A DNA stretch of 63,813 nucleotides, the filler included, from Reclinomonas americana ATCC 50394 (taxonomy: Eukaryota): assembly GCA_048213135.1 (NCBI GenBank). It is 5 parts of 3 records of this genome, joined end to end, with 100 filler letters (N's around TTAATTAATTAA, not from the genome) between each part and the next. Parts side by side here need not be neighbours in the genome. Positions count along the whole stretch, not along the records: positions 1 to 26,712 come from PS015306.1; positions 26,813 to 47,194 come from PS015306.1; positions 47,295 to 56,259 come from PS015308.1; positions 56,360 to 59,738 come from PS015309.1; positions 59,839 to 63,813 come from PS015309.1. One strand, given 5' to 3'. Positions 36 through 63,813 of this stretch are shown piece after piece; within the stretch, counting starts at the first letter, position 1; each line of letters opens with the position of its first letter. The position numbers and the translations under genes are program-made. Below the pieces are notes generated by a model that saw only the letters and a list, made by a program, of their open reading frames with translations, made no database searches and was not told the DNA's origin.

Positions 36-945
36 CCGCGATACACGGTAATGATCTTTGGATCGAGCTCACGGCAGGCCGCTACATACATACATACACA
101 CACGCGCGCTGAATGAGCACAGACAGCGTGCCGGGTCGACACACAACACCTCAGCGCAACGAGGAATGCTCGGATCATCCATGGCCTCTGCTCTCGCCGC
201 AATGCGCTCCTTCTCCTCAAACTTGGCCATAATCACATCCGCCAGTGTCTGCTGCTCACGCCGTGACGAGGGCATCAGAGCGGCCAGAGCAGCCTCATCG
301 CTCTCGTCGATTTGCTGCACAGCACGTGTAAGAGACGAGTGACAAGAGTGTCAAGTGACTGCACGCTCACCAACTCCTCTGAGAGACTCTCGGCATCTGA
401 GAAGTCACTCTCTGACATCGAGTCGACATCCACTGAGCCTGCACCGACCATCGGAGCATCACGACTGGTGTCGACGATCCACAATCAGCACACGCGATCA
501 CAAACTCTTGGAGTCAAAACGCATACACACCGCTTCTCCTCATCATCCAGTTCCGCACGTTGTCTCCTGGCCAGCTTGGTGATACGCCGCGCGTCCTTCT
601 CTGTCATGTGCTGCAGAGTGCGTGTGTGTGAGCGGCCATGTGCACATTCACATGCACAGACTTTGCACCCTCCTCCCCCCAAACCTGCTCATCGGCATCA
701 TCGTCATCTCCATCGTCCTTGTGCGCGGCTGCGGCTGCTGCAGTGGTGCCAGTGCCGACCGACGACGCTGTCTTTCTCCTCTTCTTCACGCGCTGCTTGG
801 CTCCGCTCGGGTCGTGCTCCAGTGGGCCCTCGTCCTCGCCATCGTCGGCCCTGCTCTTCTTGGAGGTGGCGTACTGATCGGCAATGATCTGCTCGCCAAG
901 TGGATCGTGCCGTTGGTTCTGCTTCGAGGTCTTGGCGCGTGGCAT
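36..945 (-). CDS. BYSL: Bystin / ENP1 (40S ribosome biogenesis), 5' part; runs off the window start
   Basis: Spliced exons read MPRAKTSKQNQRHDPLGEQI, RRITKLARRQRAELDDEE, TLADVIMAKFEEKE and ELDPKIITVYR, which match the bystin N-terminal pattern. ATG at 945. Confidence 0.85.
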
Positions 946-1446
946 TGTGTGATTGGAGAGGTGTGTTGGTCGTTTGGTTTGATCGTCGACATGCTTTGGA
1001 TTGTCGCGTGCATGCGCAGGTGGGATGTGCATGCTGGCCAATGTTGAGTGCAGCAGGCGACGCAGCGACTGCAGCGAGGGGTCCGAAGGCATACGGGGAA
1101 CCAAACATGACAATCATGACAACCCGGGCCCGCCACAACAAGGCCTGGGGCGGGGATCTATCTCGGGAGGGTTCTTTTTTTGGCTCCCCCACAGTGACCC
1201 CTCAGAATCTGCGACCACCCACGTGAGCTAGACAGGTCGACCACACCGGTGAAGGCCGTTTGTTGGACAACCGTGGAAAAGGGTCTATTTCAAGACCAGG
1301 CAGATATCGTAAATTTTTCAATCGCGACCGAGAGACGACAACTTCCTGCCACTGAGTTTCGCTCTCACTGTTTCCCTCCTGCATGTGTGTGACACGTGTC
1401 ACTCATTCGCTGCGTGTGTGCATAGACACAACTCAACGAGTGATTA

Positions 1447-8577
<7,131 letters not shown>

Positions 8578-8708
8578 CTCGCAGTAGGTGACACACACAC
8601 AGGTAGCCATCGGTGAGTGAGAAGATGAATGAGTGAAGCCCCTGCAATTCCCCTTTTGTGATGTTTCGGAGGCTGGCGCATTGCATTCGATCTGAACACG
8701 GGCACCAC

Positions 8709-10498
8709 TCAGCCCGAGCCGCAGTTCATGAACACGCCAAGGTACCTGCACGATGCGATGCAGCATGGGCAACATGGCAAAGGTGGAATGGAACGCAACA
8801 GTGAACGTACCACACGTGATCCTTGATGGAGCCCTCCACGAAAGGCACGTCACATGCCGGGTCAGACTCGCCGTTTCCGTAGCACTCGACAAATGACGTG
8901 CTTGCCTCGTTGTAGTGGATCTGTGTGATTCACGCTACAGTTAGCGGCGCGCGCGTGAACGTTCCTGCGGCGTCAGTTACAATACTCACCTCCGTTGGCA
9001 GGTGGTGGTAGCCGAGGAGTCCCTTGGGCGGCATCATCGGCACCTGCAATATTGTAAAGCGAGTGAGTCCACTGCGTTGCATACACAATATATACCCCCC
9101 GTCCGTGCGCCGAACGCAACGATATCGTGATGGTGCACGATGCGCCATGCGTTCTCCGGCTTGATGAGTGACGCGAACAGATTGGCGTACTTGTCATCGC
9201 CCACTCGCGGTGAGCCGACCGTGTACAGCGTCACATTCTGCGTTTGGGTAAAGGGTGAGTATTCATACACGAGAAGAGACACGTGCACGCTCGTCAGCAC
9301 ACGAGTACCTTGTCGGAAAAGGTGGTGGCCAGGTGCGTTGACGCCAGGGTGGCGATGGCGGCGCCGAGCGAATGTCTGCGCAAAAACAGCATCACGTCCG
9401 TCATCACAGTCAATCAGAGCACACATAAAACACGCAGCGCGGTACGGACCCCACGCAGATGATTGGAGCGTCGGGATACTGCTGTCGGAGGGCCTTGACA
9501 CTCGCGACCACCGTGTCCTTGACGTCTGCACCACGCGAGTGAGCTCAAACGCAAGATTCGGCCATCGACAACATGCACGACTCACCGTGGTACGCCTCAT
9601 ACCAGCCGCGGTACACTGTAGCACACAAAGGTTAGATGCGCGGCAATCCACACTTTCATGCTCTTCTCGCATGGGGACAGCTAACCATAGGCATCCGTGT
9701 CAAAGTACCTGCGAAAAAGAGAGTGATAGGGAGTGAGCAACAAATCAATCAAACTCTGAGGCAACACAAGAGGCTGGCTCACTTCACAGCCGGGAAGTCC
9801 AAGTCCTAACCACCAAAGCAAACACAAGGTGAGCACAGAGCTAGGGGAGAGAGCACATGAGGGGAGCGTAGCGAACACACACCGTGAGCCAATCCTCAAC
9901 AGAGATGGTACCACGAAACGTGATGAAAATGCTGTCACAACGTGTGAGACGAGCAGGTGATAAAACAGACTGTGCATCTCACACACACCTCTTCCACGTG
10001 TGATCGTAGGCCACCATGCCAATCGTCGAGTCCAGCGCTGACTTGTGCTCAAAGTTGGCGGTCGGCGGAAGAATGCCAGGCACATGGCTGCGAGCAAGAT
10101 GAGAGTCCAAACATGTAGAGAAAGAGGAAGAGAATGGGTCCGCGCAACTGGCAGAGACTGCAGTTCCACGCACGCACGTTGCCAAACTGGCACGTCATGG
10201 CGTCGCCAATGTAGCTGCTCTCCGTCGATGTAATCCATGAGTGATTCATGAAAAGGTGCATCGATGTATGTGTGTGTATGTGTGTGACGCAACGTGGCAG
10301 TGAGCGCAAGGTCCGCATTGTAGCCTGTCGGCGGTGACGGAGCAGCTGAGAATGCGCGCGACACAGCTCCGTGTGAGAAGACAGACAGACATGATGCGTG
10401 GCGGGAGGGTAGCAATCACCAGTGACGGTCACAGACGCAGTGGCTGCGGCAATCAGAGCCAACACTGCAACGAGCTGCAGCAGAGTGCCTTGTCGCAT
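8709..10498 (-). CDS. Secreted class-3 (fungal-type) triacylglycerol lipase
   Basis: Signal peptide MRQGTLLQLVAVLALIAAATA, spliced nucleophile motif G-HSLGAAIATL, YTVGSPRVGD, RIVHHHDIVP, GYHHLPTE, and C-terminal DHVWYLG. Confidence 0.88.
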
Positions 10499-10601
10499 GA
10501 TGACGGACGGAGGGAGAGAGTGTGACGAGGACACGACGTTCATTGATTGCTTCTTTACTCTCTCGTATTTCTTGTACATAAATGAGACTGCTAATCAGCA
10601 A

Positions 10602-13202
10602 CTAGTACTCTCGTGACGAGTACGTTGGTCTGCAACAACAAAATCCAGTCAGCGTCAGAAGTGCATGAACACGACAGCGCACGCGTACCTCTTTCGGTCA
10701 GGCTGATAGATGCTGGACGAAGAAGAGGAGAGCGATGAGCGGCCGTAGGTGTCGCCTTCGACATCGAGAGCTGGACTGGAGCGCTTGCGTCGGTATCGTT
10801 CCTCGCGGTCGCGCAGCGATTCGCTCTCACGCTCACGTCGACGCTGCGGTAAAGAAAAAATGCTCAGCAGCGTTGGGCAACAGCGCGACGAGCACCGCAG
10901 ACGGTACCTCTCGATCTGGCGAGGGCGGCTGCGGTTCTTCGCGGCGTGGAGGTGGCTGTGGATTCTGCAACGTCGCATTGTAGACATCGTCGCTGACCAG
11001 AGTTTCGTCGACCAGAATCGGAGATTTGGACAGGTCGACGCTGAAACCGAGAGTGAGCCCGGCGAAACAGCTCCAACCCATGATCGAGAAACACTCACCG
11101 CAACGTGTAGCCGTAAAAGGCGGCACCATTGAAAGTGGCACGAGCGCGAATTGCGCCCTCCTCTGAATAAAATTCTACAAAACCGAACCGAGTGACTTTT
11201 GGATCGCCCGGCACCTGTGTCAGCACTGGCCGTGAGTGGCGACTGAGACGTCGTATCAAGTGTGTCAACAATGGTTGTGTACCCTCTCGCCAGCCAACAC
11301 CACTTTCTCCACGCGACCGGCGCGCTCAAAGAATTGCGCGAGCTCGGCAGCCGTAACCTGATCATGTTTCAGATGAGCACAACGCAAACCGTGACCAGAG
11401 AATGCTCCTTGTCACGCACCGCCGACGATATGCTGCCCACGTAGACCGTGCGTGAAATGGCCTGCAAGCGTTCACGTGGCAGTGTCTCTTGATTGCGCAC
11501 CTCCTTGATGGAGGCCGCGATGGCCGACTTGCTCTTCTGCACCAGCAGTTTCTCCGCGCCCAGCACAATGTGGTTGAGCTGCAGAGCCACATCGGCCTCC
11601 TCCGGCGTGCTGAACTCTACAAAGCCGAAACGGCACGTGTGTGCACCCTCGGCCGTGCCGACCAGGCGCGACGCTGTCACCTGATTTCATGGCAGCCCAT
11701 TCTCAGAAACCGGCTGTCAGCTCTTTCTGCAGCTGCACCACTCACCCTGCCACACACTCCAAAGAACTCCTCCAGCTGCCTCTTGGTCAGGCCCTTGTCA
11801 ATGTTGGTCACGTAGACGGTGCGTCGGATCAACTCGCGTTCGATGCGACTCTCCAGCGCCCTCTCGTCGGTCTCCACGGCGCCGGAAAGCAATCGCCCGT
11901 GCACGTAGCGCGGCTGCTCGTCCATCGAGCTGCCGGCCGAACCAGCAGCACTAGCAAAAGAGGATGATGCCACTGATGACGACGACGACGGCGGGTAAGC
12001 TGGCGGTTGCGGTGGCGGAGGCAGTGGTGCATGCATTGCTGGCGGCGCACTCATGTGCATATGTTGTGGTATGGCCATCATGGCCATTGGGTGTGCCGCC
12101 TGCTGCTGCAGCACGCTAGCCACCGCGGCGGCAGCGGCAGCGGCAGCAGCCGGTTGAATGGAGGCCTTTTTTCATGCGAATTAGGTCATGCGCCAATACA
12201 GAAACACGGAAGCAGGGAGGACGAAACTGGCACTCCATGCTGTTGCAGCACGGCAACAATGCTGGTGGCCACGGTGGCCGACAGCTCCGCGGCACCCATC
12301 TGGGTCTGCAAGAGGCCGCAAAGAAAGAGGCACATGACACAGTGCAACAGAGCAGGGGGGTGGGAGAGGCAAGGGCGCAATGCGTGTGCGGGCCAGTGCA
12401 AAAACTAGGAAGAGGGCAGAGGAGAGGTGTGTGCGTGCGCTTACCGGGTACGCGTGCGACATTGGGGCCATAGGCATGGAACTGGCGTAGACGGAAGGCA
12501 CGGGCTGTGGGGGCGGTGGAGGTGGAGGCGGTGGTGGTTGCGGAGCAGTGCAATGCAGCTGGAGCACGCTGATGCCCTTGGCGGCCGGACACACACGCAA
12601 CGACACGCCTTCCAACGAATAGTTGTCAAGTTGCAGCGCTGCGTGCGCTTGCGCGCTGTCGGCAAACTCGACAAACGCGAAACGGCTGTAGGTGACCACC
12701 GGAGGGTTGCTGCAACACACACGCCAAGTCAGCTCGGCGGGAGAGCGGGGGATGCCAGAGAAAAAAACGCAACGCATTGGGATCGGGCCACTGGCCACTC
12801 GGCCCGATCTTGCAGTGGGTGATGCGCGCCACTGGCGCGAAGAACACCGACAACGAGTCGTCCGTCATCCACGCCGCCAGATTGCTCACATACACGGTCC
12901 GTGCCGAGTCAAAGAAGCCATGGTAGGGCCAGTCGGCGGGATATGCGGCACTGGCGGCGGAGAGTGCGGAGAGCGGAGGCACCGATGCGTAGCCGGCAGG
13001 CGGCGTGAAAGCCGAGACGCCCATTCCTGGAGCTGATTGCTGAAGTAAGGAGAGAGATGTAAGTGGACTGTTGTTTTGCTGCCTTGCTGATGAACAGCAT
13101 GTGTACCTTGCCTACTTCCTTGCGTTTCGACGTGCCGGCGGGCACGGCGCCCACGGCGGCGGTGGAGCCAGGCGGTGGAGCGGGGATGTCGTACAAGGGC
13201 AT
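10602..13202 (-). CDS. RNA-binding protein with three RRMs and an R/S/E-rich tail (SREK1/SRSF11/plant CID-like); 5' end probably lies in the gap
   Basis: RRM motifs RTVYVSNL..RFAFVEF, RRTVYVTNID..RFGFVEF and RTVYVGS. Pro-rich linkers and tail RERESESLRDREERYRRKRS. Confidence 0.75.
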
Positions 13203-14397: not shown

Positions 14398-17300
14398 TCA
14401 GAGTTCACCAAACAGCTCGGGAGGTGCTTTCTGTACGCCACACACATCTGTTAGCCAAGTGCTTGCCACCAGCTCGTGCGACCAAGACATGAAACTCAAC
14501 TCCATTGTAGGAAATGTCGACCATTTCCTTCATGAGGTCGTACGCGATCTCCTTGGTGACCACCGCATCGCCGCGGTACAGCGGGTGCTGACGCACAAAG
14601 TTGCGCATATACGAGGCCGTCGTGTGCAACTCACCGTTGGCTCGCTGCGACACGAACCGGATGTAGCGATCGAGACAGCTGCGAGTCTCGGCCGTGATGG
14701 TGTCAGCCTTGGTCTCCAAGTACTTGTAGACCAGGGAGATGAGGCCGGGGAAGTCCTTCGGGTCGCCCGAGCGGACACCTGCACAAGCGAGTGAGTTGAG
14801 CTGCACAAGAAAAAACACAGCGAGTCCACCGCGCAAAGCAAACCATTGATGATCTCGTCAATCGTGTACTCGGTGAGCTCGCCATAGCCGGGGGCGCACA
14901 CGTTGCGGCGCCAGTAGAACTTGGACTCCAACACAGCGTCGCGCTTGTGTGCCTCGGCCAAGTTGACATCCACCTGCAAGCGCACGCACGCACTCGTCAG
15001 CGACAAGGCGCCCCTCACCAACTCAAAGACACCACAAACCAGCGACAGTGGCATGTACATGTTGAGCGAGAAGTGCTGAATGGCGCGAGCCACCAGCACA
15101 ATGAAGACAGTAAAGGCAGCATTCTCAAAGTCCGTCAACGACGCCTCCATGACACGGAACTCGACGCGCCAGCCAATACCACTGTTTTGTACGTCAGACA
15201 GGCATCTCGAGGACTATATGAGAATGGAAATAACAAAAATAGGCACGCAACGAGTTGGGTGGCGGCGGCTTGAACCGCACCGTCTGCCAGTTTGTGCTCT
15301 GAATGTTCTCAAAATGATCGACATTAACTCGATCGTCCAACTCAATGCGGTTCTGGTAGATCACCAGCGGATCACGAATGAACAGATGCGCACAGTGGCG
15401 CGCCAACATGTGGTCGACGCCAGCGGCCACCAATCGATCGTACGCCTCCTTATTTATGGGAGCTCGCACATCGTTCAGTGCCTCCACATCCACGTCTGCC
15501 AAACAAGAAGGTGAGTGGGCAGTCGAAAAGCGCCCATTTCCAGCAATAAACAAACCATCGCGGCTCGAGATGAAACACGAGACCGAGTCGTACCGACTCT
15601 TCGGCACTCGCGAGAACCCGTCCTCTCCCAGTTCCAACTCTTCCAGTGTGCGGTCGTCCACTGCACCACTCACCTGCGCAAAATTTCGAGCGACAGGCGT
15701 TGAGCAACGCGTGCATGAACGAAAACGAGGGGACGGAGAGTGCCACTCACCACATGCCATCGCACGTCCGTGTCCACCAGCGTGCCCTTGAGAATCGGTG
15801 TCGCGGCCGTCAGGGCCAACATAATGGGGCACAGCACGGCAAACTGATCGTAGAGGAAGCGCGCCTGCACCATGTCGCGTGTTTGGAATGTGACCTGCAG
15901 ACAGCAGCAGCCCATGCCGAATGCCATGCAGTCCATGTGCACGGTATCCAGCGGCTTCTCGCACCCACTGCACACGCCATTCTGCAGCGGAACCTCGGGA
16001 GACTCGCGGCGCACCGGCACCTCGATCTCGCTCGTGTCATCGCCCGACGCTCCGCCACTGGACGAACCGGAGATGGCATCAGAGTCACGGTCGACCTCGT
16101 CCGTCGGCTGCGCGCGCGCACACACACAAGTCAACACGAGTGGCACTCGAGCGCGATCTCTCTCTCTCTCTCTCTCCTCTCCCCAGCACTCGCTACGCAC
16201 CGACGGCAGGTAAGACATTTTCCGCTGCGATGCACGACGCGGAATGTCGTCTGTGATGGCACTGACACGCATGCCGGCGGGTTTGTAGTACTGCGGCAAA
16301 AAGTATGCATTGCGCGACAGTGTCGGGGCGTCGGTGGTTCGTCTGTGTCACGTCATTAATACTGTGCACAAATCAAAAGAGAAGAGAGGAAGGCAGAATT
16401 CATACCGGTACACGAGTGCCGCATAGGCGTGACACCGAGCATCGGATCCCACGGTGGAGCACACGTCGGGGTGGGCGGGCACATAGATGCACACTCGTCG
16501 TCCGCGTCGCTCACGAATGTTTCTTGTCAGCGTTCTGCAACGATAGCAACAGCCTGTGAGTCGAATCGAAACACGCGTATACGCACAGCCACGTGGTGGC
16601 GCAACTGGAATCGCTCGTGTGGATTGATGCACTCATCGGGCACGTAGCGCGATCGTGACACGTGACCCGAATCGCCGGGCGGCGCATGCGGAGGTGTCGT
16701 AAAGTTGTACGGCACACCCATCAGCGGGAACGACGTACACGACATGACTCGCACGCTGTCCTCGGAGCGACCTGCACGACGACAGCACACACGCGTCACC
16801 AATCGCGAGAACGATAGTGAACGAACAAAATAAGCCAGCAAACCATTCCGGCGACACCATCGCTTGACGCATTCATCCGCAATCCGCCTCCTCGCCGCCA
16901 TGTTGACCTCCACCAGCGGCAACGCATTCAAACTCTCACTGTACGGGCTTCCAGGCGTGCCTAAACCAGCGCAACGAGTGAGCACGCACGCTGGAGGGAT
17001 CAGATCAATCCAGCTGCACAGAGACACGGACCCTCAATCATGAATGATCCATACTCTGGTCGCCACAGCGCCACCATGTCTGGCTTTGGCACCGACTGCG
17101 GACTGCACTCCGCGCCTCCACCAGTCAAACATCCATCACAGATTAGAGGGAGAGCAACTGCAACAACACGCAACTCACGACCCTCCTCTTGCGCATGATG
17201 CACCGCCTCATTGTACGCATCCTCCTCCACTGTCAACTCAGCCAGCAGCTCCGCACCAATCAGTGCCAGTGTCACACTCTGCTCGAGAGAGGAGAGGGAT

Positions 17301-17742
17301 AGAGTGAGTGTCGCCATGTCACACGACTGCTGCACTCGTCGTCATCACCACTCCACGCGCTCCAAATGCACACAATGCATGCTTCTTTGCAACACGCCAC
17401 AGACACGATCTTATGGTCGCCACTGTGGCCTTCCCTTGTCTCTTTTTCACGAGCAAAGACGCAACTTTCGACTCATCATCAAACGCCCACAATTGGTACT
17501 CGATCTCATCGCCCCATGTCAGCGTCTCACTGCGCAGATCTCGGTACCGCTCCCACAGTGCCAGGAACTGCGTCGGGGGAGAGGGGAGGGGTGAGGCAAG
17601 CGCGTGAAATGACCGCGAAACAAACACACGCTCACACACACTCACTTACACACACCTGCTCAATGCCGTGCTCACGGACGTAGTTGAGGAATGGTAGGGC
17701 CTCGGCCCATGGCAGTGCATGACCACTGGTGAGGAAGCCCAT
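14398..17742 (-). CDS. GCLC: Glutamate-cysteine ligase catalytic subunit (gamma-glutamylcysteine synthetase)
   Basis: Motifs [97 protein letters not shown]. Confidence 0.95.
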
Positions 17743-37698: not shown

Positions 37699-38247
37699 AT
37701 GCTCACCAGCGCACGCCTTCATCGCCTGCTCTTCTCCTCCAGTGGTGGACGCCCTGCATCAGTGCCTATTATCCGGCTAGTCTCCGGTCGCGACCACGAC
37801 TGTGGCAACCCCGACTGCTGCGCGCATGAGCATCTAGTCGAGGTTGAGGATGCAGAGGGTGAGCGACAGGCACTTGCGCGGGAAATGGAGGCCAGTGGAG
37901 TGGTTACAGAGGCGGATCGCGGGGTGGAGGTGTTCTTTGAGCGGTTGAAGACGATGAGTGATGCAGAGGTGAAGCAGTTCTTATCGGTAAGTGCTTGGAG
38001 TGGCAGTCTGTGTTGTTTGGTGTGTTAAGCTGTTGTTGTAGAGGGCAAAGGAGCTGGAGGATGCGCAGGCGGAGAAGCAGCGGGTGAATCCGCGGACGGG
38101 CGAGGTCGATGGGCCAGCGGGTCCTGGTTGCGTCTCGCTCTCGTGCTCTCACTTGCGCCTTCTCTTCCTCTCACTTGCACGTGGTGTGGTGTAGAGCCGA
38201 CGCGGTATGGCGACTGGGAACGCAAGGGAAGGGTCACTGACTTCTGA
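37699..38247 (+). CDS. SDHAF4: Succinate dehydrogenase assembly factor 4 (Sdh8, DUF1674)
   Basis: Mitochondrial presequence-like start and the diagnostic C-terminus [31 protein letters not shown]. Two introns. Confidence 0.92.
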
Positions 38248-38267
38248 GCGGAGCTTTCGAGACTCCG

Positions 38268-47144: not shown

Positions 47145-47336
47145 GTGCTGATGAGGGGGAGGGAGAGATGGGGAGTGAGGGTGGGGGGGGGGGGNNNNNN
47201 NNNNNNNNNNNNNNNNNNNNNNNNNNNNNNNNNNNNNNTTAATTAATTAANNNNNNNNNNNNNNNNNNNNNNNNNNNNNNNNNNNNNNNNNNNNGCGCGT
47301 GTGCGCATATGTGAGTACATTTTCACGATAAAAATG

Positions 47337-50300
47337 TCAGACATCGGAGATTACCAGTCGCGCTGCTCCGAGTCTGCTCAATCGTGTCTGCATGGCCTGT
47401 ACTGCCTTGGCACTGTCATTGTCAGCCTCCTTCTCCTTGATGCGAGTGATGGTGCGAGTCAGCACTCGCAAACACATGGAGTACAAATTGGTCATCTTGT
47501 CGGTGAGTCCGGTCTCCGACAGAGCCAGCATTTGACTATAGCACGTAACAGAAATGGATGATGAGCAGATCCAACGGCAACTCAGGACGGAAGAGTCTCC
47601 GCACACACGAAGTACCTCAGCAGCGTGATGAGTCGAGCCGCCTGCACGTCCTGCGTGGCGAAGATGGCAGAGAGGCGATCGAACTCGTCCATCAGACCGG
47701 AGTGAGCCGACCTGTTCACACGTTTGTAGCGGTCAACAAACACAACTCACATTCCGACTCGCAAGAATACAAGAGAGACATCAGCGAAACGCACAGACTC
47801 AGCAAAAAGTCGCCAATGTCTTCGGCGAGCGACTCTTCGACCGACATGGTGCTCGTCGCACCCTGACCAGTGCCACTGCGGAACAGCGAGAACGGGAAGT
47901 GCTGTGGCGCATAGAAACGTGAGTAACGAGAGTGTACGCGCTTACAACAAAATCAACGTCACGCGCGCAACTACAGTCGGTGCTGCTCCCGTGTTCTGCA
48001 ACAGCAATACAACGGCGGTGAGTCCTCAGTCACTCATCACCAAAGAAAGGTAGCAATGAACGCAACAGAGAATCCAGCCTTGGACATGCTCTGGCGCGCA
48101 CGGCTCACTGCGGTCTGCTCGTCCGGTGTCGATGCGAGCAGTTCAATGTGCATCAGCTGATCGGCCAGATCAACATTCAGCTCCAAGTCCGCCGGCCTGA
48201 GTTTTGTGTAAGCACAAGGGCAAGAGGCATGCATGGGCGTGCATACGCACACACTACGTACCCACGCAGTTTTTCCACGGCCGGATTCTTGTACAGAGAG
48301 GCAACGAACGGCAGCACACACTTGAAAATGTATGTCCTGTATGTTTCTCGTTCCTTTCGTCGTTGCTTGATCTGCAAGCGTGACAGTGAGCATGTAACGA
48401 AGCTGCGCACACTTTCGTCATTGTCAAACGTACCATCTCGTCAGTGCCCATGGTGGACCGACGCGAGACCAGCGGAGCCATGCTGACCTGGCGTCTAGTG
48501 ACCTTGCCGCCAACTCCGCCGTCGTTGGTCGCCGACCAGCAGTCCAACGATGACGATGTAGACGTGCGGCGAACCACTGGTGGTGGACTCATGACTGCTC
48601 CAGGCATGGTGGCCGTGTAAATCGAGCTCGAGTTCTGCCTGGCCAGCGGCAGTCCACGGCGCGACGTCTCGCTCCGCGGTAGTCCCGACGGTGGTGGCAT
48701 AGGCCCTCGCGCTCCTGTCAACGCACCATTGTCGCGTTCCACTGGCGAGAAGACGTTGATCACGTCGCTTGCCACTCGCGCTACGGGCGGCAATGCCGGA
48801 ACGACCACACCAGCTGGCGGTCCGTGGTTCAAATGTGACGACTGTGCCTGACTGTTGCCGTTCCACACCTGGCGAATACCCTGCAACTCCATGACAGTGG
48901 TCCTCTTTGCCAGATGCGGACGACCGCCAAAGCCCTGCACACGAGTGGCAGCGGCGGCACTAGCCACGTTCTCGTCGTCTGTATCGCCATCTTCTCCGTC
49001 GTCACTGCCGGTCGCTCCTGCAACATTGCCATGATCGCCAACCGCCACCAAACTCGAATCCGAATCTGCGCAAGACAAAAAGGGGACATGCGCATGGTGG
49101 TGAGACAATGGCGAAACAAACAGCAGACACATTGTGTCTCAAAAGGCCCTTTTGTCGTACCGTCGTCGTCTCCACCACCAGCGGCCTCCTCCAGGGCATT
49201 CAACACTGCCAGCCGAGTAGACCCAACGGAGGACATGGCATCGTCGGCCCCGGCACCACCGCTCTTGAGTGCTGGCGAGGCTTGTCGCGGGAACTCGCGA
49301 TCAGCGGCGCCAAACTGCAGCGAGTGCCGGTGGTGCTGCAGTCGCAGAATAGTGGTGCGTCGCCGCTCCAACTCTTCGTCTACCACAGTCGATTGCACGG
49401 GTGCCACCAGCGTCAGTGGCTCCGCACTCGGTACCGCCGTCTCGTCATCATTGTCGTGAGTGACGCCATCGTCACCGGCATCAGCTTCTTCCGTCAAGCG
49501 TCGTGCCTCTGCCTCCTGCAGCCGTTGCTGCTCCTCCTCCTGTCGGTGTTGTGCCTCGGCCAGGTAACGCTCCAGCTCCACGAGACGTGCCATCTCGCCC
49601 ACAATGCTGCGCAGCAGCAGTCGGATACGCGGCACCTCGTGAATCAGCGACGTCGACTGCTCCGTGTTCATGTACACCTCAAGAAGGAAGTCGAGAAGCG
49701 GGCCCTTGACTTCCAGCACAATGTGCGGGTCGTCAAGGAGATGACGAAAGACCTCTTGCGGCGGGAACCATGCCTGGCACTTGAGCTCCGTCTGCAGGGG
49801 TGATCGGCGAGTGAGTTAGCACGCTGCACAGGCGCAGAGAGGGAGGGAGAAGGAGGAAAGCGTGAAGAACGCAACATAGTAGTTCTTGCCCTTGGAGCAG
49901 AGAGTGAGGACATTGAGAAGTGCAATGTGGTATGCCAGCAGGCCGTCGTCCGGATGAGTCTCGTGGTCTCTGTCGCGCATCAGTTCCGACCTGCCAGTTG
50001 CGCAAGAGATTAGTGTCTCGAAGGAGAACAGTACGCACACACCTGCAAGGTGACAAGAACACACCGCAATGCAAAGCCATCGTCGCCGCGGAAGAGAACA
50101 AGGGCTCGACTTTCTCGCTCCGCGAGGGCGCGGAGGACCAAGTTTTGGTTGCGCTGGATCGGTTGGCTGCCGACACTGAGAATGCACTGTGTGGTACACG
50201 CAGATGTGAGCGCGCGCNNNNNNNNNNNNNNNNNNNNCAGCTCGTAGATGCTGAGCATGAGGTTTTGCTCCTCTTCTGCCGACTCGTCGTCCGTCAGTGG

Positions 50301-53300
50301 CATCTGCAGGAACGAAACCAAAAGGTCGAGAGTGCCAAGGTCGCGCAGCAGATTCTGCTTCTGGCGTCGGTCGCCGCCCTGTTGCAGCTCTGCAAAGACG
50401 GAGAGTGATCAATGATGGGCACGCGTGCAGACAGCAGAGCGGGCACGTACCGAGAATGAGATCGCGAACCAAACAGTTGGCCTCCTGCTCCTCGCCGAGT
50501 GTCAACACGCTGCCACCGGCATAACACGAGAGTTCGTCGACGATGCGTTTGAGCGAGCGATACAGCACAATGCTCCGCTCGGTGAGGATGTGAATGGCCT
50601 TGGCGCGCGTCAACAGCTCCTCCATCTGCCCGTGTGAACGGAACAGCAAGTCGAAGGCAGCCGTGCGAAGTGGCGTGTACCGGTACTGACACAGGTCGAG
50701 GAACATGGCGTCGAGCTCGGCGTGCGGCACGAAAAAGTCGTGTTGCTGAAACGAGGGGATGAGAGATCGAACCAGAAAGACGTCTACCCACATGTGCATG
50801 TGCAGCAGACACACGCACCTTGAGCAGAAACTGCAATTGCGCTTCCAAGTCGATCGTCCGACCGGCTTTGAAGAGAGCCAAGAAGTGGGTGATGCGCGAG
50901 TTGAGCCGCACGTCATACAGCGAGGACAGAATACGGACGGCCTCCAGTTTGCAGTTCTACAGCACACGGTGATGCTGTGAGATGAAGGACAGTGGAAGGT
51001 GTGCGGCATCCACCACGCGCGCACATACCATGATGAGCAAGTTGTTCTCCGTTTCAGAGAAGCGCGCGCTAAAGTTGCTCTCGCGCGAGTAATCATCGAA
51101 ACGGCCGTCCATGACACCAACAATGCTGCGTGCAACTGCGCCCGCCACTTGCAGGTTGCGCAGCAGGCCTTGACGCACCATGACTCCAAGAATCTTCAGC
51201 AGCTGTTGTCGCAGTGGATGTGAGACTCGGTTACCAGCGGCGACTTAGTCGTTGTCTGCCACGCAACTGTTAACGAAAACGCATTCTCCTCGACTTGATG
51301 CAGCCGCTGCGGTGAGCTCTGCAGAATGTGCTGCAGCGAAAAGTCGATCAAGCGCGCAAGACTGCGAACAGCCTCCTGGCGACCGGCTCCAGACAGCGAC
51401 TGCAGTGATACACCTTGGTCCTCTTGTAGCCGCAGGCCCTGCACTGCTGTGTGAGACAAGCAGTAGGGATTCAACACACTAAACCGTGTACGCGCACTTA
51501 CCTCATCGACCGCCTCTGTCATGTTGTCAATCCTCGTGGAGAGCGAAACAACACTGCTGGGAGCGGTCAATCGAGGACGCGCTGGTGCCACTAGCTGGGT
51601 ATTGCGAGCACGGCTGGCTCGCATATCGCCCTCCTGTATTTGAATGTCGCCAGTGGTGGTATGGTCGACCTCGTGCCATATCTGCGAATTCGCCTGTGAG
51701 CCAAGCGAACGGTCGCGATCACCCGGGATGAGACGCGAGCATACCCTGACTGGCTCCACCAGCGGCATGTCTTCCAGGGCGCCCAGATGGACAATGTGCA
51801 TCAGTGTTGCAAAGCGTGTGCGAAGGCGGAGATGCACTTGGGGGTTTGACAGCACGTCAAACACGAGCGAGAATGGCAGAATCTCCGAAATGTGTGACAC
51901 ACACGGTCGCGGCCGATTCTGTGCGACACAACAAGAAGGCACGCAAGTGGTCAGCCTTTCGTCTGTTCACAAAACTCTTGCCGCCAGCAGCCATCATTCG
52001 TACCACACAGAGTAAGCCGTACAGGCGGATCTGTTCCAAAAAGTATTCCACCAACTCGCTCTCGCCATCTGCGCGAAAGAGGGAGGGAGTGAGGCAACGT
52101 GCATGCAGGAGGAGGCAGAAGAAAAGTTTTAGTGTTCGCACAATGCAAAAAGTCGGCCAATGGTAGCCGGCGTGCCTGCCCTTCATGATCGTACTCCACG
52201 TAGAGACCCTTGTCGGGTAGCCGACGAACGTGCACCTGGACTCGCGGCATGGCCTTGACAAAGTGCTCGAGGATGAACAACTGCGACGGACAAAGTGCAT
52301 TGTTGAGTAGAATGCCGTCGCCAGCTGACAATGTGACAGAATAACCTGATTCTTTGTCACTCCACTGACATCCTCGCATACACACAGAGTGCACAACAGG
52401 CTCATGTATCTGTTTCGGAAGCGACAATGAGGAAGTGTGCCGTCGTGCAGTGCACGAACACTCACACCACATACCTGGCCTTTCGGCCGCACAGCAGTGG
52501 GAGGTCAACAAAGAACTGCAGTTCTTGATTGGTCTGTGACAGTGGAAAGTGAAAAGTGAGATGCGAGAGGTGAGAGGGAACTTTTCGGAAGCAAGCACGT
52601 TATTACCATTTCTTCGAGAAGCGTGAGGTTGTCCTTGTAGATCTCCATCAGCTGTAGAATGAACGCTGTCAGCAACGTACGTGGAATGTTGCACTAGTGA
52701 TGCTGCTCACCGTCAACGCAATCTCCTCCTCGTAGCCGAGCTGGTCTTGCATGAACTGTAATGACATTCATAATCAGTGGTTGTGACGGACCTAGTTGTT
52801 GCTGACAAGCGCACACACCTTGGCCATTGGACGGAGGTGTTCCCGATTCTTCCGATAGTCCTTGGCAAACTGCTTCATGAGGCGGTACACCAGTCGCACA
52901 ACATCGTGTACGTGTCGACTGCGAGAGTCGTCCATCGCGTACGATTCGTTGCGGAAGATGGCCACGAGCACGCGATGACAGAGCAGGATGACCTGCCATG
53001 TTCACAAACAATATCCGCATTGGCAAAGATGATAGGGGGGGGACACAAGCCTGTCGTTACGGCCAGCACACACCTTGCGTTCACGGAGTAGCTTTTGGTG
53101 CGCGCGAATCGGTAGACCCTCGCGTGTGAACGGGTTGGTGTCGGTGGACTCGGTGCAGAAGAGAATGAGCAGAGTGAGGACTTGACGGACCGGCTGCGTC
53201 TGCTCGCGAGACGGCAGACCAGGTTGTTGCATCTGCACATGCACGCGCAAAGGGTGAATAGGGGGAGCGCAACATGAGCGCCCCTCCGATGAGTGACACG

Positions 53301-54497: not shown

Positions 54498-54546
<49 letters not shown>

Positions 54547-56207: not shown

Positions 56208-56415
56208 CTGTTCCCGGCCAATGTCGCGAATCACGTCGCGCTCGCGCATCGTCGCGGCGNNNNNNNNNNNNNNNNNNNNNNNNNNNNNNNNNNNNNNNNN
56301 NNNTTAATTAATTAANNNNNNNNNNNNNNNNNNNNNNNNNNNNNNNNNNNNNNNNNNNNACATATATATATTCACACAAGCAGACGAGGTCGAGCGTGTG
56401 GAAGACGACGAAACC

Positions 56416-57060
56416 GAAAGTGCGCCCCAGCAATGCCTTGTAATCATAGAGCGTGTCGGCCGAAGACTTTTCGTGCCGGCGGCGACTGACATTGCCGAGA
56501 ATCCACCGACCCGTGGTACACGTAACACAGTTGGCAATGCATGGGGCCTGCAAACCGCAGCGGTCAACAACACGAGTTGCACGAGTGTGAATATGGCCAG
56601 ACAACTCAACTGCATCCTCCTGCAGCATCACAGGCTGTCCCGGCGACGCCACTGTAGTATGACGCAGCACCGACTCTGACAAGTCAGGCTCCCAGAACTC
56701 AGCTCCCTTCGGCACCATCCGCCACGCCTCTCGCGCCTCTCTCAACTCCTCCTCGTACGCCTCCTCCGACTCATCGTCATCTCCATCATCATCATCATCA
56801 TCATCGTCATCGTCGGCACTCGAGTGCGCATCGGTCGTGGCCGCATCAGTGACAGAGTGTGTCGTGTCTGCCGCATCGTGCTGGTGGCGGTGACTGTGCC
56901 GACGCGTCTCTCGCCACTTGCGCAACTCGCCAATCGACACATGACACATCACGTAGCAGCGCAGCAGATCGGTTCCAAAGTCGATGCCCACATAGCCCCG
57001 ATGCTCACCAGCCGCCGCCGCACTGATAATCCCCGGCGGCGCGGCACTGTCGGCGTTCAT
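56416..57060 (-). CDS. Divergent Hsp70-like nucleotide-binding domain, N-terminal part (separate gene or C-terminal part of the SPRY gene); truncated by gap
   Basis: YVGIDFGT at 56971-56994 matches the Hsp70 phosphate-1 motif. WILGNVSRRRHEKSSADTLYDYKALLGRTF resembles Hsp70 RLIGDAAKNQ..NTVFDAKRLIGRKF. Confidence 0.65.
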
Positions 57061-57150
57061 CACACACGCACACAGACAAAAGGACGCGAGCACATATCCA
57101 TGAAATTCACTTTGGCTTTCGCGCGCCTTACAAAAGTCCATCTCCGTCTC

Positions 57151-59738
57151 TCACGTGCGATCCGGATCCGAGATGGCTGCCGGATCGGAGCTGACTTCGA
57201 TCGGCGGTTCAGGGGCCACGACACCCGACGCCGAGCCGCCGCCCGCCACACCACCGTCCTCGTCTGCGGCGTGCACAATCGAGCTGAACGATGCGAAGCC
57301 CTCGGGTGCGCCAAAGCTATCAGGGGGAAGGAAGGAAGCAGAGAATAAGTACGACGCACAATTATTCGGACGCTACAGCGGAGGGAAAAAACGCAACACA
57401 AATGGTTGGTCGCCGAAATTGATGCGCGCCTGTTGTCGCCTGCCAAAGGTCACCGCCGGGCAGTAGTACTCGTGGTGTGAGAGAGGTGCGCCACTGAACG
57501 CCACGGGGCTCTTTGTTCGTCGCCTCAACAGCGGCTGACCGTTCTTGAAGAAGAAGATCTCGAGAGTGTCCACATCGATACCGCAACCAATCACATCGCC
57601 CGGAACCGCCGGTCGCCCATCCAGATACTCTCGTTTCTTGCCGCTAACGGTGCGGCCACGGAACACCTCAAACGCAAACGAAAGTGGATCGTCGCCGAGC
57701 TCACCGTCCTCCTCCAGCACCTCGCACTCGAGCGACGCGAATCCGCATCGCAGGTGCTCCACATTGTCGAGGACCACCTTCGCGTTGCACGAAGAGAGAG
57801 ACAGAGGTCAGCAGAGAAGTGCGCAACTCTTGTTCTCTTTCTCACACACACTCTTCCTCAATCACCTCGTAGTAGTATCGGCCAGCACTGGCGAAACCCG
57901 TGTATAGTACAGACTGAGAGATGGGCGCGTCGTTGCGGAAGTGCAAGCGCGACGGAATCATGTGCAGGAGACCGCTGAGTTTGCAGTGATGCGTGCTCTC
58001 CTCCGAACCCACATCTGTCGCCACCCCGGGGGTGAGTGCACACAACAACAGATGACGCCAAGAGATTTCATCGATGACGCACCAGTCTCTAGCATGCCGG
58101 TGACCCATTCCGCACAAAACTCCAGACCCTTGTCGTCGATGCCTTCACGGTGCAGACGGTCGCGGAACTTGGAAATGGTCGACTGCAACGAGGAGGAGCG
58201 CATCCGCTCCTTTACCGTTTCTGTGAAAGCAGTGAGCAGAGAGAAACGGCCGGAAACGGCGACCACGCGGTACGAATTCATCATGAGCTCACCGACGGTG
58301 GCGAGGAAACCCAGCGTGTTGATAGTGTTGATGAGTGTTGATGCATCCGACTCCGCCGCCAGTGTTTCGGCGAAGCGCTCAATCACTCCTTGTTCCGACA
58401 TGTTGCGGCACGCCTCACCCGCTACAACAGCCAATCAGTCTGCCAGTCAGCAAACTCCTATTCGCTGAAACGCAGCACACAGCCGGCACAACGTACCTCC
58501 GACAGCAATGTCGGCGAGAAGGAGCGTGGCGTCCCGTCGGTCGCTGACCTCGGCGGAGGAGCAGAGTGGCGCCAGGTGCTCTCGCCACAGCCGTCCAAAG
58601 TACCGATCTGCGCAGGGAGAGCATGAGTGACGAGCTCGGTGTTGACGAACAAGCGAGCGACAGACACAACACACTTACCATCCTCGGAGAGTTTGGCCAG
58701 CGCCGAGAGTGCCAGATGGCGCTCTGCGGCGTCGGTGCGTCGTGCGTACGATACCAACGAGGCAATTGCATTGGCCTCCACCAGTGCGTCACGTACTTGA
58801 AGAGCTGTGGTGCGCGTCAGATGCTGCTACACGCACAAACGGTAAATAGTGACGGATAAACGCAACACACGAGGGTCAACTGCGCGAGCACACTGCACGC
58901 AAGCAGGTCGTTGCCACTCTGACCGTGGAGCGACAATTCCACAAGCGATTCGATTCCGTGCTCGTCCATCAGCTTGATGGCGTACATGTCTGGCAAGGCG
59001 CACACACGGTTGAGAAGAGAAACTAGTCGCGGTTGTGCCACCCCGCTACGAAACTGGTACTCGACAGGTAGTACAGAGCAATGAGCGCGAAGCGAATGGC
59101 GTCGGGTTCGCGGCACGTCACGATAATGTGCAGCAAATGCCGAATGCCACCACTGTCGTGAATGATTCGTGCCGCTCCCTCTGCGAAGACGTCGACGACG
59201 ATGGCGTGAGAAGTGAGGGCACACACACACACATAAGTGCATGCACAGACCATGCATGGCCATGTTCATGAGAAGCGAGGCCGAGTCGACCACGGCCTTC
59301 ACTTCATCGGAACGCGCACCGGCGTACACCTTTTGCACATCGTGACTTTCGAGAATGTCGTGCAGCAGCGCCTGGTTCTCGTGATCCTCTGAACAGAGAG
59401 CACAAGTAAGCTTTCCACTGAACGGCGGCATCACAAGCACTGGAGCAGAACACACCCTGCCGATACACATTCTCCAGCGTGTGCGAGATGGCGGCAAAAT
59501 TGTTCGCGCGAATGTTGTAAATCAGATGCGCGCAGACGGGCGATTCGAGCACCTTCAGGCGGCGAGACCTGCTCAATTCAAGCATGCCCTCAACCGTGTC
59601 GTCGAGGGAGCGACTGGGAAGCAAATTGATGTCGGGTGGCTGCACGAAGACATAAGAGACGAGGAGGAAGCAACACACTGAGATGTGAAAAGACACAAAC
59701 CGAAATCCATGAATGCTCCAGCGCTTTTTCCAGGGTGA
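57151..59738 (-). CDS. ARM-repeat + SPRY protein (RSPRY1-like core); 5' end lies in the gap
   Basis: ARM-like helices (IRFALIALYYLS, LALSALAKLSED), LEFCAEW, and SPRY motifs GRYYYE, GELGDDPLSFAF, GDVIGCGIDVD, IFFFKNG, PAVTF, INFGDQPF. Confidence 0.75.
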
Positions 59739-60970: not shown

Positions 60971-61199
60971 GCAAATTGAAACCGTTGTGANNNNNNNNNN
61001 NNNNNNNNNNNNNNNNNNNNNNNNNNNNNNNNNNNNNNNNNNNNNNNNNNNNNNNNNNNNNNNNNNNNNNNNNNNNNNNNNNNNNNNNNNNNNNNNNNNN
61101 NNNNNNNNNNNNNNNNNNNNNNNNNNNNNNNNNNNNNNNNNNNNNNNNNNNNNNNNNNNNNNNNNNNNNNNNNNNNNNNNNNNNNNNNNNNAACATACA

Positions 61200-63813
61200 C
61201 AGCCTCGGCGCCCGAATCCGCGCCGCGTCGTCGGCGACGCCGAGAGCCGGGACTGAGTTGCGAGTCCTACACACAAGAGGCATGAGAGAGGTGCAACATC
61301 CATTGCAGCCACAAAAAAACACAAGCAGACCTCGCCATCCGCTCCGCCATCCAGCAACTGCGACTCCTCCTCGGCGTCCTCGTCAGGGTAGATGGCCTCC
61401 GAGGTCTCCAGAGACAAGTCACCGCTCTCGGCCCGCTTCTCTCCTTCATCACCATCGTCGTCGTCGTCGTCGTCGTCGTCATCATCGTCGTCGTCCGACG
61501 CCATGTCAGCGTCTCCGTCACTGTCGCTCTCCACGTCGCGACCACGCTTGCCACCCTTCTTGCCAGCCTTGCCCTTCTTCTTGGCCGCAGCCTTGGCTTT
61601 CTTGGCTGCCTTGCTCTGCTGTTGCTGCCTGGCGGCCGCGGCGGAGGCGGCGGTCTTGGCACGCTTGGACGGCTGTCGGCCCTCGGATGCGGTGGGAATA
61701 TCGACTTCCTCCAGCTTGGCCGTCTTGTAGATACGAGCTCGACCTGCACGCAGTGTGGCCAGGCGCGTGTCGGCGTCGGCCACTTGCGCCTCGATCTTGA
61801 TTCTCTCGTCTGTGCGCTGCTTACGATCGGCGCGAAGCTGCTTCACCTTGACCTCCAGCGTGTCGCATGCCGTCTTGCACTCTTCGCGCTGCTTCAGTGC
61901 CGTCCGCACCTCCTCGCGCAGCTGCACACACACACAGAGTCACGCCTCAGTTTCGATTCACATGAGCAGCAACAGCAGCCACCGAGTGTGTCAGAACGCA
62001 CCTCGTCGACCTTGCTCTGCAACTGCTGCTGCGTCTTCTGCGCCTTCTTCAGCTCCTTTTCGGCCTCATCCACCTGCTTCGTCAGGTCGCGCTCCGTGTC
62101 GGCACTGACACGCGCACTCTCGTACTCGATCTTGGCCTTGACCTTGTTGATCTGCTGCTCGTACTGCGACCGTTTCTCGATCTTCTCCATCGCCGTACGC
62201 ACATACTTCTCCTCGTACTCGCGGATATCGCGCACACCCATCTGTCGCGAGAACGGGCGGAAAATGTCGTCGGTCTTGCGCCCCTTTTCGCCCTCGATGC
62301 GGTCGATCTCTCGCCTGCGCTTCGTCTGCGTGTCCTCCAGCTGCGCAGCACGAATGGGTGAGGAGAGACTGCCTACAAAATCAGAGAGAGAATGAGAGAG
62401 CGTGCACACAGTACACACCTCCAGCAGGCGCACACGTCGATTGGCGATCTCGGCCTCGGTCTGCGCCAGATCCTTCTCCAACTGTGTGACCTTTTTCGTC
62501 GTGTCTTCCAGGTCCAGCGTGATGCTGCTGATCTGCGACTCCAGTGTCACGCGCTGCTGATTCAGCTGGTTGACGCGAGACACCAGATCCGACTCTTCTT
62601 GTCGCAGACGACGCATGTCCGATCCCTGCCGACCGTTTTTGAGCAACAGAGAGAGGGGAACAGACGGACTTGCACACACACACACAACACACCTGCGTGT
62701 CACGAAGCCTCTTGAGCTCCTCCTTGGAACGGGTGCCGTCGGAGACCTTGGCCGCACGCTTACGCAGTCCCGAGTGGCCACTCGCCATCAGACCGTTCTT
62801 GTGAATGACAGCACCGTCGAGGGTGGCCGCCTTCACTCGAATGCTGCCGCCAAAGCAATGGCGCCGCGCCTCGTCCAGCGAATCACAAATGATGGCGTTG
62901 GCGCAGGCAAACTGCACGGCGCGCTCGATTGTCGGGTCGCACTTGATGACATCGAAGGCCAGCTTGGCGGAGCCTCCCAGCTGTCGCAGATGCTCGTTGA
63001 TCGGCTTGACCTTGATGGTGTCGAGCGGCAGGAATGTCGCCACACCCGTCTGATGCTCCTTCAAGTACGTCAGGCACTCCTTGGCCGTCTCGGCCGTGTC
63101 CACCACCACGGCGTCGAAATTGCGGCCAAAGAGCGCCGTCACCGCCACCGTGTACTCGCGACGCATCTGAGAGTGACAAGAGAGAGAGAGGGAGAATCTG
63201 TGTCAACAACGACGACACACACTGATTCAAGCGCAAAAAATGCACCTGCACAAGGTCATGCAAGCGACCCTTGACGCCTCGATTAGTGAGCTTCATCTGC
63301 TCAATGGCGTCCTGCATGCGTCGCTCACGCTGCGTCTCCTGCTCCGACGACCGCGCCGACTGCAGCTCCGTCTCAGTCGCTGCCTGAGCCTGCGCAAGTG
63401 CAGTCTTGCGCTGCACGATCTGCTGCTGTTGGTTCTCCGTCTCGCGAATGTCGGCGACGAGCGTGCGCAGCGCCTGCTTCTTGGTCGACAGGGCCTCGGC
63501 AAGCTGCTCCTTGCGATGTACGCCTACAAACAAGGAGTGAGGTTGTCTGCGGCGAGTAGCGAGCCACACGCAGCACGCACGACGCAACTCTTGTCGAGGC
63601 GATCGTGATGGTGGCCCTTTTGTGTGGCCAACCGCTCCGACTCGCCCTCGAGGAGGCGCTGCATCTCCGCGTCGGAGGCCGCCTGTCGAGTGAGCTGATT
63701 CAGCTGCTGATCGAGTGTGAGCGTGGCCTGACCAGCATCCTCCTTCCTGCAAGGGCGGGTGAGCGAACAAGGAAACGATTGTCGGCAATCGACGACGACG
63801 GCAGCAGCAGCGG
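61200..63813 (-). CDS. SMC1: Cohesin subunit SMC1 (hinge and coiled coils), partial
   Basis: Hinge motifs GVKGRLHDL, AVTALFGRNFDAVVVDT..AKECLTYLKE..GVATFLPLD, KAATLDG..IHKNGLMASG, and IFRPFSRQMGVRDIREYEE. Confidence 0.92.

Follow-up and report, generated by a model that had tools for sequence, protein, structure and literature searches.

A second class of 5' splice sites in an intron-rich eukaryote, possibly read by U1 in a shifted register

Introduction

Can one genome mark its introns with two kinds of 5' splice site (5'ss, or donor), one that depends on a final G in the exon and one that does without it? The question is raised by a 63,813-base stretch of DNA, here called the window (G+C 56%, with 18 masked runs and 4,147 N altogether), from a eukaryote that is very rich in introns. 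An original prediction listed 26 introns in the window that begin GTTGCG or GTTGAG and mostly lack G at the last exon base (-1), and proposed that the intron's own G at +1 stands in for it. Here, the observation is confirmed, in that the listed sites appear on sequence grounds to be real introns, and they belong to a donor class with its own exon context. We put at about one half the probability that this second class is read by U1 small nuclear RNA (snRNA) in a register shifted by one base.

The 5' end of standard U1 snRNA is ACUUACCU. Roca and Krainer reportedly found in 2009 that human atypical 5'ss are read by +1-shifted U1 pairing, and Roca et al. are said to have described bulge registers of human 5'ss/U1 helices in 2012; +1-shifted sites are a rarity in human, numbering a few dozen. 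PMC4856993 and PMC9311317 treat shifted and bulged registers as established for a minority of human donors. In the literature searched by motif and by register, no GTTGCGT donor class is reported for any organism.

Results

Listed donors open real-looking introns

All 26 listed coordinates start with GTTGCG (24) or GTTGAG (2: 14500 and 41991) on the strand assigned to them, and only three have G at -1 (3229, 5194 and 38127), both exactly as predicted. Across both strands GTTGCGT occurs 34 times, against 11.13 +/- 3.42 in 100 dinucleotide shuffles, none of which reaches 34. The third base matters: of the GTNGCGT words, 34 have T, 18 have G, 9 have C and 3 have A, and T alone is enriched.

Introns were called in two ways. 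A spliced profile-to-genome aligner, which requires GT (or GC, penalised) and AG and is blind to -1 and to +3..+7, was run with a profile of 60 homologues for an ABCC transporter gene, a profile of 43 pepsin-like proteins for an aspartyl protease gene, and a profile plus three single relatives for a glutamate-cysteine ligase (GCS) gene, one of these, P0001, being up to 82% identical within exons. An ab initio gene finder, whose donor term uses +3..+7 only and ignores exon bases, was counted on the other genes; it recovered 34 of 43 homology introns, missed the SMC gene and produced at least one false intron (57529), and so provides a second, weaker sample.

Of the 26 listed donors, 12 are assigned introns by the donor-agnostic alignments. 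The ABCC alignment yields 37 introns and covers eight of them (2401, 2682, 3229, 5053, 5194, 5680, 5821 and 6557), as well as two unlisted class donors, 6275 and 3626 (GTTTCGT); with nine GTTGCG donors and one GTTTCGT among the 37, the earlier estimate of roughly a quarter of ABCC introns is borne out. The GCS alignments recover 16605, 15251 and 14500 together with the unlisted 17465, and the protease alignment places 39618 inside a conserved motif. At 38127 the Pfam DUF1674/SDHAF4 match runs across the junction, its two exons covering profile positions 8-33 and then 32-50. Twelve further sites (9120, 10148, 10293, 12773, 24564, 51267, 57397, 58866, 63588, 160, 41991 and 17174) are placed by open frames, a branch site with a CAG/TAG acceptor 60-190 nt downstream, and motifs; 17174 is ambiguous among them, the alignment having chosen donor 17203 (GTGCAT), whose acceptor is a poor GAG. 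The motifs said to be restored by splicing were all reproduced (PPPPN/SGIGWRVEFR; HHHDI/VP, of class-3 lipases; NANT/PAIVDTG; GP[E]PTRYGDW; a slash marks the junction).

The predicted intron boundaries thus stood at the 12 aligned sites and, by Pfam continuity, at 38127, while most others are placed by frames and motifs, and 37463 came out without a 3' end: no recognisable acceptor was found in several hundred bases of CT-rich low-complexity sequence beyond its exon. That PH-domain-like exon (37200-37560, minus strand), ...RRFFVLDSGIVTYHDKDGP, terminates at the 37463 donor. About 15 class donors were found beyond those listed.

Could these sites be an artefact, i.e. chance motifs, mis-modelled genes, GC-AG introns or introner copies? 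Half of the list (13 of 26) is placed by frames and motifs only, and the gene finder did make false introns. Against this stand a motif count three times that of the shuffles, none of the 100 equalling it, and the recovery by homology alignment across conserved motifs of the 12 listed donors together with 17465, 6275 and 3626. A GTT/GC reading, which would make these GC-AG introns beginning three bases later, was rejected in that none of 13 GTTG donors moves there once the GC penalty is removed; 5194 and 6275 then shift to unrelated, implausible GC sites. Introner copies were likewise rejected by all-against-all blastn of 43 introns, in which the best match is 15 nt, the level expected by chance, and pairs of at least 18 bits number one class-class and 15 ordinary-ordinary, so that the introns are alike in their signals only. 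An artefact is accordingly very improbable.

For counting, donors with G at +5 were termed ordinary, and those of the form GTT-NN-G-(T/C) that lack a +5 G made up the class. The class introns are given below, the -1 base standing before the slash and the evidence after the semicolon.

2401..2469 (+), ABCC intron, donor t/GTTGCGT, phase 2; donor-agnostic profile alignment
2682..2747 (+), ABCC intron, donor c/GTTGCGC, phase 0; donor-agnostic profile alignment
3229..3296 (+), ABCC intron, donor g/GTTGCGT, phase 2; donor-agnostic profile alignment
3626..3699 (+), ABCC intron, unlisted earlier, donor a/GTTTCGT; donor-agnostic profile alignment
5053..5111 (+), ABCC intron, donor c/GTTGCGT, phase 2; donor-agnostic profile alignment
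5194..5260 (+), ABCC intron, donor g/GTTGCGT, phase 0; profile alignment, lost without the GC penalty
5680..5749 (+), ABCC intron, donor a/GTTGCGT, phase 2; donor-agnostic profile alignment
5821..5890 (+), ABCC intron, donor t/GTTGCGT, phase 1; donor-agnostic profile alignment
6275..6414 (+), ABCC intron, new, 140 nt, donor c/GTTGCGC; profile alignment, unstable without the GC penalty
6557..6624 (+), ABCC intron, donor a/GTTGCGT, phase 1; donor-agnostic profile alignment
20213..20281 (+), predicted intron, new, donor g/GTTGCGT; gene finder only
21337..21395 (+), predicted intron, new, donor a/GTTGCGT; gene finder only
21689..21746 (+), predicted intron, new, donor t/GTTGCGC; gene finder only
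38127..38194 (+), SDHAF4 (DUF1674) intron, donor g/GTTGCGT, phase 1; Pfam profile continuity
82..160 (-), intron, donor c/GTTGCGC, phase 1; open frames, branch site and TAG, gene finder chose 144
8692..8799 (-), predicted lipase-gene intron, new, donor t/GTTGCGT; gene finder
9044..9120 (-), class-3 lipase intron, donor c/GTTGCGT, phase 0; HHHDI/VP, gene finder and frames
10088..10148 (-), lipase intron, donor a/GTTGCGC, phase 2; gene finder and frames
10215..10293 (-), lipase intron, donor c/GTTGCGT, phase 2; gene finder and frames
12166..12227 (-), predicted RRM-gene intron, new, donor a/GTTTCGT, weak AAG acceptor; gene finder
12710..12773 (-), RRM-gene intron, donor c/GTTGCGT, phase 2; gene finder and frames
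14431..14500 (-), GCS intron, donor a/GTTGAGT, phase 0; alignment to P0001
15182..15251 (-), GCS intron, donor c/GTTGCGT, phase 2; alignments
16535..16605 (-), GCS intron, donor a/GTTGCGC, phase 2; alignments
17103..17174 (-), likely GCS intron, donor a/GTTGCGT, phase 2; alignment ambiguous
17279..17465 (-), GCS intron, new, 187 nt, donor a/GTTGCGT; alignments
24059..24129 (-), predicted Naa15-gene intron, new, donor c/GTTGAGT; gene finder
24485..24564 (-), Naa15-gene intron, donor a/GTTGCGT, phase 1; gene finder
27778..27847 (-), predicted intron, new, donor a/GTTGTGT; gene finder
37457..37463 (-), donor only, at the end of the PH-domain-like exon, t/GTTGCGT; acceptor not found
39549..39618 (-), aspartyl protease intron, donor c/GTTGCGT, phase 2, NANT/PAIVDTG; profile alignment
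40437..41430 (-), probable aspartyl protease intron, new, 994 nt, donor c/GTTGCGT; Pfam coordinates, alignment chose a mini-exon
41806..41991 (-), aspartyl protease intron following the signal-peptide exon, donor a/GTTGAGT, phase 2; frames and motifs
47902..47971 (-), predicted RyR/IP3R-like gene intron, new, donor a/GTTGCGC; gene finder
47996..48066 (-), predicted intron, new, donor t/GTTGCGT; gene finder
49792..49875 (-), predicted intron, new, donor t/GTTGCGT; gene finder
51203..51267 (-), RyR/IP3R-like gene intron, donor a/GTTGCGT, phase 0; gene finder
56548..56610 (-), predicted intron, new, donor a/GTTGAGT; gene finder
57317..57397 (-), intron directly past the SPRY domain, donor t/GTTGCGT, phase 2; gene finder and frames
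58805..58866 (-), RyR/IP3R-like gene intron, donor t/GTTGCGT, phase 1; gene finder and frames
58990..59054 (-), predicted intron, new, donor a/GTTTCGT; gene finder
63524..63588 (-), SMC gene intron, donor a/GTTGCGT, phase 1; open frames, branch site and TAG

The two donor classes differ in exon context

Before counting, weakly supported ABCC introns (1804, 2202, 2759 and 4065) were dropped, and ten GCS introns consistent between alignments and four of six protease introns were kept. The 47 homology-supported introns comprise 28 ordinary, 15 class and 4 others, and G stands at -1 in 27 of the 28 ordinary donors against 2 of the 15 class donors (Fisher p=3.8e-8). The predicted set from the other genes (54 ordinary, 21 class, 11 others and 2 non-GT) splits in the same manner, with -1 G in 39/54 and 1/21 respectively (p=6.3e-8). 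The contrast first noticed from the sequence alone therefore holds in both sets, and the class is large, as had been claimed: 36 of 135 introns pooled, about 27%.

Its heptamers are GTTGCGT (22), GTTGCGC (7), GTTTCGT (3), GTTGAGT (3) and GTTGTGT (1), i.e. the class is a shape rather than a single word, but a narrow one, and members other than GTTGCGT and GTTGCGC nearly all lack the -1 G as well. What the class has at -1 is A 15, C 10, G 3 and T 8, against expected 5.6, 11.7, 10.5 and 8.2, so that A is enriched (p=1.5e-4) and G depleted (p=0.0024). Of the 16 phase-0 class donors, 8 carry A at -1, against a background of 6.7% A at third codon positions (p=3e-6). In ordinary donors the preference for A lies one position farther from the cut (-2 in phase 1: 5/25, p=0.023). 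The class thus reads A/GUUGCGU where ordinary donors read AG/GUNNGU: the 'AG' is retained and the cut falls one base earlier.

Elsewhere in the homology set, four donors without +5 G lie outside the class (3134, 3394, 3710 and 7575, plus strand), and all four have AG at -2/-1, a clean exon-side compensation. The sole well-supported ordinary donor without -1 G is that of intron 39195-39264 (minus strand) of the aspartyl protease gene, t/GTGCGTGAC, in phase 1.

Class introns have an ordinary 3' half

Class and ordinary introns share a median length of 70. A YTNAY branch-like motif lies upstream of the acceptor in 15 of 15 class introns (CTCAC 7, CTGAC 5) and in 27 of 28 ordinary ones of the homology set, the branch A lies a median of 21 nt and 22 nt respectively from the 3' end, and a CAG acceptor is common to both. 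The branch motif is mostly CTCAC, then CTGAC, with CTAAC rare (1/28 ordinary introns). Since length, branch motif, spacing and acceptor are all shared, nothing suggests that a separate, minor-type spliceosome is involved. With frame and homology restored on their removal in the ABCC, GCS, aspartyl protease and SDHAF4 genes, the class introns appear to be genuine U2-type GT-AG introns of the major spliceosome.

U12-type introns were considered, and do resemble the class as a minority with a rigid extended donor word that needs no exon bases. They differ in the donor word itself, GTTGCGT being unlike /RTATCCTT, and the assignment was rejected because the branch motif (compared with TCCTTRAC), its distance from the acceptor, the intron length and the acceptor of the class are those of the ordinary introns.

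A possible U1 register shifted by one base

Pairing was counted against the 5' end of human U1 given in PMC4856993, on the assumption that the host U1 is standard. Class donors make 3.6 pairs in the normal register and 5.6 in the shifted one in the homology set (3.4 and 5.5 in the predicted set) and 5.6-5.7 with a bulged base, and ordinary donors a mean of 6.8-6.9 in the normal register. The A/GUUGCGU context is what a +1-shifted helix predicts, in which -1 A would face U10 and the first G of the intron would face C9. Downstream, +4 G, +6 G and +7 T/C fit U1 positions 3-6, while +5 C cannot pair. From these pairings we infer that U1 may read the class one base downstream. The proposal that +1 G stands in for -1 G is thus supported in part: the -1 G is missing, -1 behaves as -2 does elsewhere, and shifted pairing is better, which leaves the mechanism itself partly supported. 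The accompanying claim, that GCGT/GAGT is the ordinary core moved by one base, is not supported in that simple form: 32 class donors of 36 have C at +5, while 24 of 82 ordinary donors have it at the equivalent position, +4.

The eukaryote has two donor classes, (A)G/GTNNGT with a near-obligatory -1 G and (A)/GTT-NN-G-Y, mostly A/GTTGCGT. On the shifted-register model, the first G of a class intron would replace the exonic -1 G in the early helix between U1 snRNA and donor, with U1 sitting one base downstream. Cleavage would still fall before the sole GU, a position presumably set at a later stage through U5, U6 and the catalytic core. The class may let introns occupy positions where the coding sequence offers no final exon G: placing G at -1 would alter the encoded residue at 23 of the 36 sites, and class introns of the homology set lie in phase 2 in 7 of 15 cases, against 0 of 28 ordinary ones.

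Several results weigh against a shifted standard U1 or temper the evidence for it. The dropped ABCC donors 1804, 2202, 2759 and 4065 are all non-class and all four lack -1 G; if they are real introns, non-class donors with -1 G number 31/36, and the predicted set includes false introns such as 57529. Ten phase-0 class sites could take a synonymous -1 G and are nevertheless without it, so that coding constraint is not the sole cause of the class, and the phase-2 excess is absent from the predicted set (class 6/21, ordinary 15/54). Shifted and bulged registers tie on pair counts (5.6 and 5.7). The +5 C, present in 32/36, would face a pseudouridine of standard U1 and form no pair, and standard U1 predicts that GTTGAGT or GTTAAGT should be favoured, whereas GTTGAGT makes up only 3 of 36. 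The class heptamer is tight and ordinary donors are loose at +3/+4, a tightness that looks more like the mark of a dedicated guide than a shifted loose consensus. Finally, the register was deduced with the human U1 5' end and not the host's.

That pairing tie brings in a different geometry, in which U1 keeps its normal register and a U at +2 or +3 is bulged, GTTGCGT being read as GT(T)GCGT. Removing one T from a class heptamer does give an ordinary donor hexamer of this window (GTGCGT, GTGAGT, GTTCGT or GTGTGT), and PMC4856993 documents bulge registers in human. A bulge, however, leaves C9 free, so that -1 G would still be expected, whereas G is depleted there (3 against 10.5 expected) and A enriched. 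The A enrichment together with the G depletion is a prediction beyond those made earlier; it fits the shifted register and argues against a bulged U. Furthermore, other bases that might be bulged are not enriched (GTAGCGT 3, GTCGCGT 9), and GTGAGT is the commonest ordinary donor of the homology set, yet GTTGAGT accounts for just 3/36. A bulged U is therefore quite unlikely.

The unpaired +5 C and the tight heptamer turn attention to a dedicated RNA, i.e. a second U1, or a U1 altered at positions 5-6, complementary to (A)GUUGCGU and serving the same major spliceosome. GTTGCGT or GTTGCGC is found in 29 of 36 members and the remaining members are one change from GTTGCGT; +4 G occurs in 33/36 class donors against 1/82 ordinary ones; and the C at +5 (32/36) is left unexplained by standard U1. 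Dedicated guides yield rigid donors, as in U12-type introns. Pulling the other way, -1 A and G depletion are equally predicted by a shifted standard U1, and conservation of the U1 5' end is nearly universal. In ordinary donors, +4 C is not linked to a missing -1 G (4/16 against 20/66, p=0.77), and hence there is no sign that position 5 of U1 pairs with C. A dedicated RNA is a tentative candidate that we consider doubtful, and it is similarly doubtful that the lineage runs a two-guide major spliceosome, in which about a quarter of the introns would be served by an additional U1-like snRNA or by a U1 with a retuned 5' end.

Recognition might instead owe little to U1 pairing, the class being the extreme intron-side partner in the known compensation between exon and intron bases of donors, with U6 (pairing around a bulge), U5/Prp8 or a UUGCGU-binding protein as its main reader. 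For many eukaryotes PMC9803359 describes both a pair of anticorrelated donor classes, AG//GU and //GURAG, and a 'seesaw' between -1 G and +5 G, and in the homology set the four non-class donors lacking +5 G each carry AG at -2/-1. The class is nevertheless unlike //GURAG, its G being at +6 and not +5, and reasoning from published pairings, the C at +5 would come to lie against the middle A of the U6 ACAGA box whichever register is used. The -1 A with the intronic G rebuilds an 'AG' one base downstream, which points to U1, the factor that reads AG ahead of cleavage, and not to U5, which grips bases of the exon. Recognition independent of U1 pairing is thus unlikely.

Discussion

If U1 does read the class in the shifted register, a geometry that is a rare oddity in human appears here to be routine and selected, at around one intron in four. 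The likeness to human shifted 5'ss is close: the cut is at the normal GU, the core lies one base deeper, +1 G is opposite C9, +2 U is mismatched and the last exon base takes the place of -2. They differ in frequency, rare in human and about 27% of introns in the window (36/135). A further difference lies in the core, since the human model oligonucleotide of PMC4856993 (Table 2) has AAGUAU with pairing to +9, whereas the class core is GCGU, ends at +7 and includes a C that standard U1 cannot pair. The -1 base, moreover, gives a clean separation here between the class and ordinary donors.

Two other known systems bear comparison. The human bulge and asymmetric-loop registers described by Tan et al. 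2016 (PMC4856993) share with the class an extra intron nucleotide between the GU and the downstream G-U, and equal numbers of pairs are possible, but they predict that -1 G is retained, whereas here it is depleted, A is enriched and only T is enriched at +3. AG//GU and //GURAG, as described by Parker et al. 2022 (PMC9803359), are two major donor classes with compensating U5/U6 contacts; these, too, split donors genome-wide into exon-side and intron-side types, with -1 G anticorrelated with intron positions. The intron-side class here differs from GURAG, being a seven-base word with its G moved to +6, and the split is near all-or-none, with no gradient.

The class would provide a naturally occurring system, on the scale of a genome, in which to study how the site of U1 binding comes apart from the site of cleavage. 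It bears on the lineage's dependence on the G:C9 pair and on the coding constraints that shape splice signals, and the unexplained +5 C makes the U1 and U6 sequences of the lineage worth a look. Should the doubtful two-guide arrangement be true, intron positions would be freed from needing an exonic G, and this would be the first genome-scale case of two donor-recognition RNAs sharing branch-site and catalytic machinery. On the practical side, gene finders with a single donor model would mis-annotate a large share of exon ends here.

As regards relatives, the window GCS is 52% identical to one other protein and 45% identical to that of Andalucia godoyi, and in a quick tree it falls outside both opisthokonts and red algae and sits loosely beside the jakobid (support 86, unresolved). 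Published accounts describe Andalucia as intron-poor and Diplonema as having 1.6 introns per gene, few and long, and neither matches the window. A metagenome scan with a conserved GCS exon returned 80 loci at identities of at most 77%; none of the 80 has a clear GTTGCGT excess, and the 12 loci that were aligned are without a GTTGCG donor. In the 30 loci with a length of 4.4 kb or more, intron positions with good support never match those of the window GCS, the nearest being position 352 phase 1 in three loci (doubtful 'introns' of 33-36 nt) against 353 phase 1 here.

Other features of the window

The recognisable genes are as follows.

~1638-8511, plus strand: ABCC transporter
~8440-10500, minus strand: class-3 lipase
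minus strand: RRM protein gene
14124-17742, minus strand: glutamate-cysteine ligase, GCS
~23000-27900, minus strand: NatA auxiliary subunit (Naa15)
~38040-38250, plus strand: SDHAF4/DUF1674
39136-42188, minus strand: pepsin-like aspartyl protease
~47300-59600, minus strand: very large RyR/IP3R-like gene with SPRY domain (Ins145_P3_rec, RIH and SPRY matches in successive exons)
~60000 to window end, minus strand: SMC gene

Searches with Rfam families (gathering thresholds) and for ARAGORN tRNAs found none in the window, so that no snRNA lies there, and one protein search with a Naa15 exon as query gave no match. The ABCC gene (1638-8511) carries 33-37 introns of 57-93 nt each in less than 7 kb, about 8 per kb of coding sequence, an unusually high density given such short introns. 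At least 35 introns are predicted in the RyR/IP3R-like gene (47300-59600), and a SPRY-bearing channel of RyR/IP3R type outside animals may itself merit interest. The probable 994-nt protease intron (40437-41430, minus strand) opens with tandem GGATTGGTTGAAGGGG-like repeats, whereas other introns are ~70 nt. At 19948-23458 (plus strand) the gene finder alone predicts one or more multi-intron genes, with no Pfam match, including GTTGCG donors at 20213, 21337, 21689 and 22870. Third codon positions across the window are A in just 6.7% of 1,621 codons. GTGTGT occurs 245 times on both strands, and such GT microsatellites mislead donor prediction.

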